A stretch of DNA of 32,000 nucleotides, taken from the NCBI GenBank assembly GCA_038858525.1, contig JAWCFL010000001.1:170120-202119 (forward strand), in the 5' to 3' direction. The translations under genes and the position numbers were made by a program. Positions 6,819-22,271 of this stretch are shown here, one piece after another. Below the pieces are notes generated by a model that was not told where the DNA came from, did not search any database, and was given only the letters and a program-made list of their open reading frames with translations. This stretch comes from Candidatus Jordarchaeales archaeon. Its GTDB lineage: Archaea > Asgardarchaeota > Jordiarchaeia > Jordiarchaeales > Freyrarchaeaceae. Position 1 is the stretch's first letter. Each line of letters begins with the position of its first letter.

Positions 6819-7880
6819 ATGACGGTGATTTATGTGCCCAAGATCATTCCGCCGGAGGGTTTGAAAAGAAAGGTTATCGTTAAGAGTGAAGAGGAAACCA
6901 GTGAGGAGTACGGTAAACGTCCTAGCGAGAGGAGTGTGGAGGAGCTTTTAGAGGGGTGCTTCGTGAACATAGATAAGCCGGCAGGCCCGACCAGCCACGA
7001 AGTTTCTTCCTGGGTAAGGAGAATTTTGGGTTGCTCAAAAACTGGACATGCAGGGACACTAGAACCCCTTCAGACTTTGAAGGGGTGGTGAAATCCTAAG
7101 GTTACTGGGGTCTTGCCGGTTGCGGTAGGGTCTGCTACAAAGGTTATACAGGCCCTTCACCTTATAGGGAAAGAATACGTTTGCGTTATGAGGCTCCACG
7201 AGGATGTTGAGGGCGAAAGGATCAAGAAGATCTGTAAGGAGTTTACTGGGCCAATCTATCAGAGGCCGCCGATACGTTCCTCGGTGAAGCGAAGGCTTAG
7301 AGTAAGACGGATATATTACCTCGACGTGCTTGAGGTGGAAGGAAGAAATGTCCTGCTGAGAATAGGATGCGAGTCTGGGACGTACATAAGGAAGCTTTGC
7401 CACGACATAGGGGAGGCGTTAGGGTGCGGCGCTCACATGCGCGAGCTTAGAAGAACTCGAAGTGGACCTTTTACCGAGAGAAACATGGTAACGCTACACG
7501 ACTTAAAGGACGCCTATGTTTTTTGGAAGGAGGAGGGTGATGAAGCTCCCATCAGAAAAGTGTTATTACCAGTAGAGGAGGGAGTGCAGCACTTGCCCAA
7601 GTTTTTCGTGAGGGACTCAGCTGTTGACGCCATATGTCATGGAGCGGACTTAGCTGTTCCCGGCGTAGTCAAGCTTGAAGATGGAGTGGAGAAGGGTGAT
7701 GTGGTCGCGATCTTGACTCTTAAGGGTGAACTAGTCGCTCTGGGCGTTGCCCTGATGACCGTAGAGGAAGTTGTAAGAGAAAAGCGGGGAATAGCGGTTA
7801 AAACGACAAGAGTAATAATGAGCAAAGGAACTTACCCAAAACTCTGGAAAAGCAAGAAGAATAGCGGTTCAATCACGTAG
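6819..7880 (+). CDS. cbf5: H/ACA pseudouridine synthase Cbf5, join(6819..7062,7093..7880), 343 aa after splicing
   Basis: Two same-frame ORFs separated by TGA 7089-7091. Removing 7063-7092 restores [15 protein letters not shown] with the catalytic Asp. [25 protein letters not shown] and PUA domain present. Start could be GTG 6834. Confidence 0.95.
7063..7092 (+). other. BHB (tRNA-type) intron in cbf5, 30 nt
   Basis: Exon helix GGGA/UCCU; central helix CACU(7057-60)/GGUG(7087-90); bulges AG^A and AA^A; perfect 9-bp intron stem ACCCCUUCA/UGAAGGGGU with a GACUU loop. Confidence 0.96.
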
Positions 7881-18572: not shown

Positions 18573-18758
18573 TCACCTAACTTTCAACGCGTACCTACCC
18601 TTCTTCTTGATGTTCAGCTTCTTAGCTATCTGTGACCCTTCAGGGTCAAAAACGACTAGTAGTCCCCCATAATCATCAGATAGGGAGGACGTTTTGCACT
18701 CAGGGCACATCTGGTCTCTAACTAGAAGTTTACAGGTACGGCAGGCCCGCTCCCTCAA
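18573..18758 (-). CDS. spt4: Transcription elongation factor Spt4 (RpoE'')
   Basis: RACRTC...CPEC zinc ribbon, DPEGSQIAKKL and GRYALKVR motifs. Confidence 0.95.
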   Translation of the reverse strand: MRERACRTCKLLVRDQMCPECKTSSLSDDYGGLLVVFDPEGSQIAKKLNIKKKGRYALKVR

Positions 18759-19339
18759 GTTCCCTTAACCTCCTCATCACTTCTCTTTCCACCACTTTTT
18801 TCAGCTTCCTCTTTTATCCACTCTAGCTTTCCCAAGAATGGTTGACGCATAGTTAACCCTATCCGTCCCCCTCTAGCCCCCCCGGTCATAGAGACAGAGA
18901 CAACTCTCGCCCTCACAACATCGTTCTGCATTAGGCGCTTCCCTGTCTCCTTCCCCGTCAATATCCCAGCTTTGCCGTCGTAATCGATGAAGTCATCCAT
19001 GAGCTGAGAAATGTGGATGAGCCCCTCAATAGGCCCGAGACGCACGAAGACGCCGAAGTCAACGATCGCCGTCACAACACCCTCAACAACCTCGTTCTGC
19101 TCAGGCTTAAAGGTGAGAACATGGAAGGTCGCCTCATGGAATGCTCCTCCATCACCCGGAATAAGCCTCCCGACACCAACATCCTCCACGCCGACAACGC
19201 AAAGCACAATCCCCAGCTCAGGATCCATAACTTTCTCATACTCCTGCCTAAGCATTTCGAGAGCAACCTTCTCGACAGGCTCCCCAAACCTGTCAGGAGG
19301 AATCCTGAGCACATCCTTAAGTGTGACAAGTTTATACAC
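18755..19339 (-). CDS. rpoE: RNA polymerase subunit Rpo7 (E')
   Basis: LRIPPDRFG, GDGGAFH, FGVFVRLGPIEGLIHISQ and RIGLTMRQPFLGKLEWI motifs. Confidence 0.96.
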   Translation of the reverse strand: MYKLVTLKDVLRIPPDRFGEPVEKVALEMLRQEYEKVMDPELGIVLCVVGVEDVGVGRLIPGDGGAFHEATFHVLTFKPEQNEVVEGVVTAIVDFGVFVRLGPIEGLIHISQLMDDFIDYDGKAGILTGKETGKRLMQNDVVRARVVSVSMTGGARGGRIGLTMRQPFLGKLEWIKEEAEKSGGKRSDEEVKGT

Positions 19340-19439: not shown

Positions 19440-19853
19440 TTATAAAATTTCCCCATCAAGAAACAAACGTCTTCCCTGCCTTAGAAAGACCACAGGCACA
19501 CCAACCCGCCTGAGACGCCTACGAAGCTTGGCGTCATTAGTCGCCACAACACAACCCTCCCTCTTAGCATAATCGAAGACCGCGTCATCTACGCCCCCAC
19601 CCTCCACCCCCGATGGGCAAACCCTAAACCCTCTTACCTCAACGAGAGACAAGGCAGCCCTTGCCAGTTTCCCTCTCCTCCCACCCTTCTCAGCCAGCTT
19701 CATCAACTCATCAATAACCCGATCCAAAACAATAACCTCATAGCGCCCACCAATAACCCGACCAAGCTCTGAGAAGACATCCCATCCCAACAGAAACGGA
19801 GCAATCAAAAAGTTACTGTCAACTAAAACCCTAACATATGATCCCCCACCCAA
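19440..19853 (-). CDS. PIN-domain protein (Fcf1/Utp24-like)
   Basis: LVDSNFL, VIDEL, DD and VATND acidic PIN motifs; canonical position downstream of eif2g. Confidence 0.9.
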   Translation of the reverse strand: MGGGSYVRVLVDSNFLIAPFLLGWDVFSELGRVIGGRYEVIVLDRVIDELMKLAEKGGRRGKLARAALSLVEVRGFRVCPSGVEGGGVDDAVFDYAKREGCVVATNDAKLRRRLRRVGVPVVFLRQGRRLFLDGEIL

Positions 19854-21121
19854 TAAGCCTCCACCTTCCCGAAACCATCCTGCTCACAGCCACCCTCTGA
19901 CCATCCTCAGCACACACAGGACGCCGCAGCGCCACTTCAACCTCCCCACTCCTAATCGACGATACAACGCCCACTGTCACCGCCGACCCAACATTCAGCA
20001 TTAAAGCCTCATTAACACGCACATTCTCCACCCTGGAAAGCTCCTCGCTTCCCACAACCCTATCCATCAGGTGAAGCTCAATACACAAATCCTCACGCAC
20101 GGGAGGAAGGGTCCCGGGAGAACCTACAACGTTCCCAATCAAACCATCAGCCTTCGTCAAAGAGGGGTCCAGCCGCGTACCAACACCAATCAACCCACCT
20201 GGCAAAGCTTCCTCAAGCCACACGTCACCAGCATGCAAACTTACAACGTCAGCATAAATAGGCTCAAACTTACCTTTAACAGCAACTCCCGGACGAATTT
20301 CAACCTCATCCCCAACCCTAACTCTACCTTGAATAATGGTTCCACCAATAACGCCCCCAACAAGATCCTCAGGCCTAGTTCCCGGCTTATTCACATCAAA
20401 TGACCTCGCCACATACATCCTCAAAGGCTTACCCGGGTCTCTAACCGGATTAGGAATATGCTCTTCCATGAACTGCAACAAAGCATCCAAATTAACACCA
20501 AAAACAGCCGAAACAGGAACAATAGGAGCATCCTCAGCAAAACTACCACCAATAAACCTCTTAATCTGTCTAAAGTTTTCTAATGCCTTCTCCCTAGAAA
20601 CAAGCTCAACCTTATTCTGAACAATAACAACATTCCTCACACCAATAATCTCCAAAGCCGCAAAGTGCTCTCTAGTCTGCGGCTGAGGGCAAAACTCATT
20701 AGCAGCAACAACAAAAACACAACCATCCATCAAAGACGCACCACTAATCATGGTCGCCATTAACCGCTCATGACCAGGACTATCCACAAAGCTGACCTTC
20801 CTCACAAACTCAGCTTCACTCCCACACTTAGGGCACTTCCACCCCCCAGCCATAGCCAAAGTAAAGTAGCAGTCAGGAGGCGGGCAAGATGGACACTTCA
20901 AAATAATAGCATCAGCATAACCCAACTTAATCGTAATACCACGACGCTTCTCCTCACTATGACGATCAGTCCACACACCAGCCAAAGCCTGCACAAGCGT
21001 GGTTCTTGGCCCGCGAGAGAGACACTCCCAACGGATTGCCATGATCCACGTCTCTAGCACCAGCTGATCAACAGCTGGCGAGTCCAGCTGTTCCCACAGA
21101 AACTAAAGCCTGCGTACTCAT
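19831..21121 (-). CDS. eif2g: Translation initiation factor 2 gamma subunit (aIF2-gamma), complement(join(19831..21004,21036..21051,21082..21121)), 409 aa after splicing
   Basis: The ORF-track protein lacks the P-loop. Removing two inserts gives [61 protein letters not shown], NKVE and RWRLIGWG motifs are downstream. Confidence 0.94.
21005..21035 (-). other. BHB intron 2 in eif2g, 31 nt
   Basis: Central helix UGGC/GCCA (4 Watson-Crick pairs); bulges AA^U and AG^A; intron stem CCGU-U-GGGAG/CUCUC-GCGG. Splicing restores the P-loop Lys codon (AA+A). Confidence 0.92.
21052..21081 (-). other. BHB intron 1 in eif2g, 30 nt
   Basis: Central helix CUGG/CUAG; bulges AC^U and AG^A; 9-bp stem CGCCAGCUG/CAGCUGGUG with a UUGAU loop; in-frame TGA at 21070-21068. 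Splicing restores the His codon (C+AC). Confidence 0.92.
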
Positions 21122-21190
21122 GGCCTTCTTATAAGCTTCGTCCAAACAAGAACCCCCAAGAGCTTTTAGGAAAGTCTTCACGAAAGCGTT

Positions 21191-21205
21191 ATTTAAAAGT
21201 TTCCA
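21191..21205 (-). promoter_or_regulatory. Putative BRE-TATA promoter of eif2g
   Basis: Minus strand TGGAAAC-TTTTAAAT about 70 nt upstream of the inferred ATG at 21121. Confidence 0.45.
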
Positions 21206-22271
21206 GCGAAAGGATGAGGAAGGGTAGATGGTGGCGATACGAACAGTCAGAGCGGCGGGTGTTTGTTTATGTGTTTTGGCGGAGGCGGGATGTCGGGGGT
21301 TCTAAAAAATATGTCTATTTGTGTGATGAGAAACTTGGGGATGAGGAGCTTGCTGATTAGGGGTTTCGTTACCGGGAGGAGAGAGTTATTGTGATGAGCT
21401 AGGTCTTTACGACGGGGCCACCCAGCGTTTACCCGTAAACCTTCTGGGAGCTGGGAAGCTTGGTTGGAGCTTCTCAGTTTGCGTTCCGCTTCTTGGATGC
21501 AAGGGAGCGTCGATGAATGTGGTGTTAATTCTATAAGCTTGCCCCCCCTCTTATGAGAGTTTACGTGTTAATTAACGTTGAGCTGGTGGAGAATCGATGA
21601 GGGGGGGCTGTGAGTTAGGAGCCTGAGATGAAAGAGATTGGCGGGGAGCCAGGTTTCAGAGGTAGGCACATCTCGAGTACGGAAAGGTGGAAAACAAAGC
21701 CTGGCGAAATGGTTGATGGCCCATAAAGACGAGGTGAGATTCAAGGGGCTGCCTGGAGCTGTGAGGAGCAAGGTGAAAAACACGGCAAAATTTGACCGAC
21801 AAGCTCACGCATAAGTAACTCATAAATGCCATAGCCCAACTTATTATTACTCAACAAGAAAAATAAGCTGACGCTTAAGACAAACAACAGCTCACACACC
21901 AAAACTAGCCAGGCTTCAATCAATAACAATAATACGCCAAACCCAGCCAGTAACAAGAGAGCTACCATCCATCACGCAACAAAACCACAAGGATGCCCAC
22001 ACCAGGACCAGTAAGCCTATACACCAAAACAATCCACGAACCCACACAACCAGAAAACTAACCAAAACCACACAAAAATACCGAAAATACCGAAAAAAGC
22101 TCCAAACACCACCACCCACCCATAAACAACCTGACCATCTAATAATAATTACTCAACCACAACACCGAAAAACACAAAAACAAAAAACGACAAGTTCACA
22201 GAAGAGTCGAAAAAAATAAAAAACCAGACAAGTAGACAATCCTAGTAAACATCTAATAGGAGGGTTTTAAG

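Follow-up and report, generated by a model that had tools for sequence, protein, structure and literature searches.

The sole gene for aIF2-gamma in the genome of Candidatus Jordarchaeum, a hot-spring Asgard archaeon of the class Jordarchaeia or Freyarchaeia (PMC11291895), is very likely interrupted in its P-loop by two tandem BHB introns that enclose a micro-exon of 16 nt, and its mRNA would accordingly be spliced twice. On the minus strand of the window, the 32,000-nt stretch of DNA analysed as a whole, the gene can be read directly as three exons and two inserts with boundaries exact to the base (Table 1). Joined, the exons give 1230 nt in frame and encode an aIF2-gamma of 409 aa with the P-loop GHVDHGKT intact, the inserts splitting the His codon as C|AC and the Lys codon as AA|A. 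Moving either boundary by one base alters the product, and the four cut positions alone restore both the frame and GHVDHGKT. The unspliced frame from the ATG at 21121 meets a TGA stop five codons into intron 1, and both splices are needed to give the P-loop. The first-pass annotation had described this motif as encoded in three pieces, with a 40-nt exon 1, a 16-nt exon 2 and split His and Lys codons, and its coordinates and sizes proved exact. A product in which exon 1 is joined directly to exon 3 was rejected, as on the reading of the sequence such exon skipping loses the frame and is non-productive.

Table 1. Elements of the interrupted aIF2-gamma gene and of its two predicted BHB structures, in window positions
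Feature	Position	Size	Strand	Sequence or content
TATA-box-like element	21189..21197		(-)	TTTTAAATA; ~68 nt upstream of the exon 1 ATG
Exon 1	21121-21082	40 nt	(-)	ATG to GGAC; 13 residues and base 1 of the His codon
Exon 1 3' bases	21087-21084		(-)	CUGG; 5' strand of the BHB 1 central helix
Intron 1	21081-21052	30 nt	(-)	tRNA-type insert within the His codon
Intron 1 layout			(-)	bulge AC|U, 9-bp stem, loop UUGAU, 3' strand CUAG of the central helix, bulge AG|A
Intron 1 stem	21080-21072 with 21066-21058	9 bp	(-)	CGCCAGCUG/CAGCUGGUG
Intron 1 central helix	21087-21084 (exon 1) with 21057-21054 (intron)	4 bp	(-)	CUGG/CUAG
Predicted exon 1/micro-exon junction word				GCTGGAC+ACGTGGAT
Micro-exon (exon 2)	21051-21036	16 nt	(-)	ACGTGGATCATGGCAA; His bases 2-3, Val-Asp-His-Gly, Lys bases 1-2
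Micro-exon roles				A, third nt of intron 1 bulge 2; CGUGG, outer helix; AUCA, loop; UGGC, central helix of intron 2; AA, intron 2 bulge 1
Predicted micro-exon/exon 3 junction word				ATGGCAA+AACCACGC
Intron 2	21035-21005	31 nt	(-)	tRNA-type insert within the Lys codon
Intron 2 layout			(-)	bulge AA|U, stem CCGU/GCGG extended by GGGAG/CUCUC, 3' site AG|A
Intron 2 central helix	21010-21007 (intron)	4 bp	(-)	UGGC (micro-exon)/GCCA (intron)
Micro-exon/exon 3 helix	21002-20998 (exon 3)	5 bp	(-)	CGUGG/CCACG
Exon 3	21004-19831	1174 nt	(-)	last base of the Lys codon, 390 remaining residues and stop

The long ORF at 19831-21060 (or its shorter starts) aligns to the aIF2-gamma of Pyrococcus abyssi (1kk0; E 1e-155) from residue 24 only, thus the G1 P-loop is missing from it. 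The match of exon 3 to 1kk0 spans residues 24-408, and the gene beyond the interrupted region is 100% alignable to solved structures. All close protein clusters carry PF00009, PF03144 and PF09173, the domains of the three-domain translational GTPase aIF2-gamma/eIF2-gamma. The public gene calls for this factor in the family (P0001, P0121, P0002, P0003, P0004, P0005 and P0124) are all truncated at the N-terminus and without the P-loop, and they start within intron 1, the micro-exon, intron 2 or exon 3. These predictions represent a systematic annotation error across the family, therefore gene finders need BHB-aware models for such genomes. A TATA-box-like element is found at a similar distance upstream of exon 1 in all six versions of the locus; it could serve as a promoter element, and exon 1 would thereby fall inside the transcript. 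On the other side, a PIN-domain gene (19440-19853, minus strand) overlaps the stop of aIF2-gamma and is followed by an Rpo7-like gene with an S1 domain (18755-19339, minus strand). The order aIF2-gamma, PIN, Rpo7 is kept in every relative fetched.

The predicted folds agree with what the protein demands, and cuts after the second nucleotide of the bulge fall on the required boundaries in both introns. Intron 1 forms a complete BHB with a 4-bp helix, two 3-nt bulges and an intron hairpin. In intron 2 the 5' bulge is clean, whereas the 3' site AG|A is part of a 4 x 4 internal loop that separates the central helix from the CGUGG/CCACG helix; the intron stem has 4 contiguous bp, or 9 bp when one bulged U is counted. 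Intron 2 is thus a relaxed BHB, a form also recognised in cbf5 and among non-canonical tRNA introns (PMC10485636). Its 3' site might be buried by an alternative UC/GA pairing. Between the exons, intron 2 has a helix of 5 bp that the loop displaces, and intron 1 an outer helix of at most 3 bp, which do not covary. Across the whole window, about 1 in 1000 boundary pairs (3298 matches among ~3.1 million pairs) shows a 4-bp helix together with an intron stem of 3 bp or more, from which we extrapolate a joint chance of the order of 1e-9 for the motif at both required pairs. The BHB geometry at both of these pairs, with stems much longer than the threshold, is not a product of chance. A search of Rfam gave no family match at 20800-21300.

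In the present genome (G000), the palindrome CAGCUG occurs three times around intron 1, so that exon 1 can form a hairpin with the intron that competes with the BHB fold, and adopting the BHB costs ~3 kcal/mol. Of the three copies (21058-21090, minus strand), one ends exon 1 and the others lie one in each arm of the intron 1 stem, and the alternative hairpin places the 5' splice site in its loop. The competing hairpin is absent from the related genome G002 and is therefore no conserved feature.

Six distinct versions of the locus were recovered, three with both introns and three with intron 2 only. Both introns are present in G000, in G002 and in a Logan contig from SRR32459163, and intron 2 alone in G003 (Jordarchaeum sp. 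LHC_1308), in a Logan contig from SRR24425229 and in G004 ('Freyrarchaeum guaymaensis'), from a second genus of the family. Where intron 2 stands alone, the G-H-V-D codons are contiguous precisely at the boundaries of intron 1, and in 26 other Asgard genomes from the same order and phylum the motif GHVDHGK(T/S)T runs without a break. Comparison of relatives with and without the introns puts the edges of the inserts at the predicted cut positions. The peptide encoded by exon 1 corresponds to TQSLVSIGTAG of G003, where intron 1 is missing and HVDHGK follows directly. Five of the six differences in exon 1 between G000 and G002 are synonymous, indicating that exon 1 is under purifying selection.

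This distribution also bears on the history of the introns. Since intron 2 occurs in all six family members and is absent from the 26 other Asgards, it was gained at the base of the family, in the common ancestor of Jordarchaeum and the 'guaymaensis' genus. Intron 1 arose later, within Jordarchaeum, and a later loss is also compatible with its occurrence; in the aIF2-gamma gene tree the four Jordarchaeum lineages form a polytomy in which a single gain of intron 1 and a gain followed by loss are indistinguishable. A short-word blastn search with both introns found no second copy of either elsewhere in the genome. Two of the contigs show peculiarities of their own. Intron 1 from SRR32459163 (contig positions 580-613) is 34 nt long and has an extra G on the 3' side of the central helix (CCGG-G-AG|A), which represents either a bulged helix, a 4-nt bulge or an assembly error. 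The contig from SRR24425229 has, at ~530-560, ATT at the aIF2-gamma start position where its relatives have ATG, with an out-of-frame ATG 11 nt upstream; the ATT could represent a non-canonical start codon or else a variant.

The helices of the introns are kept while their sequences change. Over the six sequences with intron 2, 94.4% of the cells are paired compared with 33-51% in slid controls, and the covariation score was reached by none of 500 shuffles. The central helix and the first three pairs of the stem are 100% paired in all six sequences, and the helices vary as CG/UA/UG, CG/GC and GC/CG/UG with pairing retained. The CGUGG/CCACG helix is 87% paired, and one of its pairs, in which the third bases of a Val codon and a Thr codon meet and which thus varies synonymously, occurs as GC, UA and AU. 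In intron 1, all 42 of 42 cells are paired in the three available sequences compared with 24-49% in slid controls; its central helix carries one compensatory change from CG to UA, and six further one-sided changes keep the pairing. With three sequences in the alignment, the covariation statistics of intron 1 are weak, with 176 of 500 shuffles scoring at least as high. Given the alignments alone and no guidance, RNAalifold predicts both BHBs and also the CGUGG/CCACG helix, to which the first-pass annotation had already pointed and which thereby gained an independent prediction besides its GC, UA and AU variants. Its central proposal, that two tandem BHB introns and a micro-exon build the P-loop, receives strong support from the geometry, the intron-less relatives and the compensatory changes.

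The same observations weigh on the view that the gene is a pseudogene, or that the inserts are assembly or sequencing artefacts, and that aIF2-gamma is supplied by another copy or not made. The truncated public calls without a P-loop would agree with it, and the genome is a MAG, 93% complete and in 63 contigs, which could in principle miss a second copy. We nevertheless regard this view as very improbable. Identical interrupted DNA is present in the independent assemblies Logan SRR27170999 and JGI 3300022544, which rules out an assembly artefact, and the same gene product is encoded on at least 24 contigs. An insert stands at the same codon in five other lineages with its helices preserved by compensatory changes, exon 1 evolves mostly synonymously, and the remainder of the gene is intact. 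No second copy of aIF2-gamma was found in G000, G002, G003 or G004. The only other match to the query in G000 is EF1-alpha, therefore the interrupted gene is the only copy of an essential factor.

It could also be imagined that the inserts are skipped in translation, by ribosomal bypassing or frameshifting, with the RNA left intact. Both inserts are short hairpins, and hairpins also characterise known bypass elements, for example that of T4 gene 60. Yet the ribosome would have to bypass twice in succession, at sites 16 nt apart, and the take-off and landing codons do not match (GGA C / ACG for the first insert, GGC AA / AAC for the second). Moreover, the features that are conserved and covary are exactly those of a BHB (a helix of 4 bp, bulges of 3 nt and cuts behind the second nucleotide of the bulge), and BHB introns are numerous in this genome, which also encodes the enzymes to process them. 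Bypassing is thus extremely improbable.

Splicing of the mRNA as the preferred explanation draws on machinery that the genome encodes. Two EndA paralogues of 191 and 198 aa are present (two matches to PF01974 above the cut-off), and on the reading of their sequences one has the Tyr/His/Lys pattern and the other is without the His. This suggests a heterotetrameric enzyme with broad specificity, and a two-subunit splicing endonuclease is known to cut relaxed motifs (PMC5829648). The ligase RtcB (PF01139) is encoded as well (E 5e-181). In 2.09 Mb, ARAGORN detected only 11 tRNA genes, of which 8 have introns, a tally that fits the published account of Freyarchaeia, in which 92-95% of the tRNA genes bear introns and often several of them (PMC11291895). 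Most tRNA genes of G000 are probably hidden from ARAGORN by multiple or non-canonical introns.

We propose that the single aIF2-gamma gene would be transcribed as a precursor mRNA in which the two BHB introns lie 16 nt apart within the P-loop codons. Each intron, together with the adjoining exon bases, would fold into a 4-bp central helix, two 3-nt bulges and a hairpin, the second bulge of intron 2 being widened to a loop. EndA, with its two paralogues, would then cut after the second nucleotide of each bulge in vivo, and RtcB would ligate the micro-exon to exon 1 on one side and to exon 3 on the other. GHVDHGKT, and hence a working factor, would be encoded only once both introns are out of the mRNA. 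Once both flanking cuts are made, the micro-exon would otherwise be free, which is why we propose that the CGUGG/CCACG helix probably tethers the 16-nt piece during cutting and joining.

Several collections were searched for products of this pathway. The micro-exon/exon 3 junction had no exact match in the JGI metagenome and metatranscriptome contigs, and a protein-guided scan of the JGI contigs for related loci, which may have left out near-identical records, returned one Jordarchaeum DNA contig only, which is unspliced. Among the protein clusters for full aIF2-gamma there was no member with a joined N-terminus, and a 120-aa N-terminal query against short protein fragments gave nothing above 68% identity. 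As these collections gave no RNA-derived sequence of the gene, whether spliced, half-spliced or unspliced, we infer splicing from the anatomy of the gene, its conservation and its necessity.

If both introns are real, the question arises whether their removal is obligatorily ordered or constitutes a regulatory gate through the pairing of the micro-exon. The first-pass annotation suspected an order, as the 5' part of the micro-exon was held to be needed for the outer helix of intron 1 and to pair better with exon 3 for intron 2. One part of this stands: pairing of the micro-exon with exon 1 excludes the intron 2 pairings, since the pairs AAC(G)/CGU and CUGUGG/UCAUGG predicted by RNAalifold between exon 1 and the micro-exon overlap UGGC/GCCA and CGUGG/CCACG. 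Furthermore, two endonuclease molecules at cut sites 16 nt apart may clash. On the other hand, the exon 1 pairs do not covary, and the BHB cores (central helix plus intron stem) do not overlap and can form together. The folding of each intermediate, which had been suggested as a check, revealed no consistent effect of removing either intron; in constrained-ensemble energies, removal shifts the cost of the other core by no more than 0.5 kcal/mol in G000 and in varying directions in G002. Broad-specificity endonucleases, moreover, need no outer helix (PMC5829648, PMC10485636). An obligatory order or gate is thus unlikely, and it is equally doubtful that the exclusive pairings of the micro-exon impose an order or a checkpoint on the two successive cuts and ligations by which the tRNA-splicing machinery would give rise to the factor. 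If this were true, the capacity for initiation would be tied to how active EndA and RtcB are, i.e., to tRNA maturation, and the gene would be part of a genome-wide system in which tRNA-type introns interrupt the protein genes of an archaeal group close to eukaryotes.

Splicing of archaeal mRNA by the tRNA endonuclease has been documented for cbf5, with a single intron in some Crenarchaeota, and for Haloferax HVO_1309 (PMC2738675, PMC7714728, PMC10485636), and a 2023 review considered that more cases probably remain undiscovered (PMC10485636). The cbf5 pre-mRNA intron of Aeropyrum, Sulfolobus and Desulfurococcales (Watanabe 2002; Yoshinari 2006; Yokobori 2009, PMC2738675; PMC10485636) is a close parallel in kind, being likewise a short relaxed-BHB intron in a protein-coding mRNA that is gained or lost among close relatives. 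It is cut by a two-subunit endonuclease, such as the aIF2-gamma host appears to have, and then ligated. However, cbf5 has one intron per gene, whereas aIF2-gamma has two predicted ones, 16 nt apart; it also differs in being an essential initiation GTPase, in the position of the introns at the catalytic P-loop and in its Asgard host. HVO_1309 of Haloferax volcanii is an mRNA that the archaeal splicing endonuclease cuts at a BHB, and its spliced product was seen in RNA-seq (Schwarz 2020, PMC7714728; PMC10485636). Unlike aIF2-gamma, it has a single site outside any essential conserved catalytic motif and belongs to a euryarchaeon with a homodimeric enzyme.

With respect to several introns per transcript, the multi-intron tRNA genes of Thermoproteales, Atabeyarchaeia and Freyarchaeia are similar, as they carry several BHB introns at non-canonical positions and also leave exon pieces of a few to a few dozen bases (Sugahara 2008; PMC11291895; bioRxiv 10.64898/2026.10.13.758758). 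The lineage (Freyarchaeia, equal to Jordarchaeia) and the enzymes are the same. The exon pieces of a tRNA, though, are held by the folded tRNA body, whereas the 16-nt piece of aIF2-gamma would be held by local helices only. The papers on Asgard introns that we searched treat tRNA genes and do not mention introns in protein genes (PMC11291895; bioRxiv 10.64898/2026.10.13.758758). Within the literature searched, tandem BHB introns with a micro-exon are unpublished for any archaeal protein gene, so that the earlier suggestion of a novel multi-intron archaeal mRNA with a micro-exon holds; the mechanism itself is known.

An essential, universally conserved GTPase that could not be made without two splices, with one exon of just 16 nt, is informative in several respects. 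As to substrate range, it would show the lengths to which endonuclease-based splicing can go on an mRNA in which no tRNA body holds the pieces together. For evolution, one family offers a natural series with none, one and two introns that is suited to studying intron gain. As Asgards are the closest known relatives of eukaryotes, interrupted protein genes in this group draw attention, although the introns are not spliceosomal.

The window also contains cbf5, the classic spliced archaeal gene, with an insert of its own, which adds to the case for splicing of aIF2-gamma. An ORF-merging scan of the window for further mRNA introns was too permissive, yielding 176 candidates, and the cbf5 case alone was used. 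Its insert of 30 nt (7063-7092, plus strand) forms a 10-bp hairpin with BHB geometry (CACU AG|A ... GGUG AA|A), and without it the gene has an open frame of 344 residues with the TruB motif GHAGTLDPKV running across the junction.
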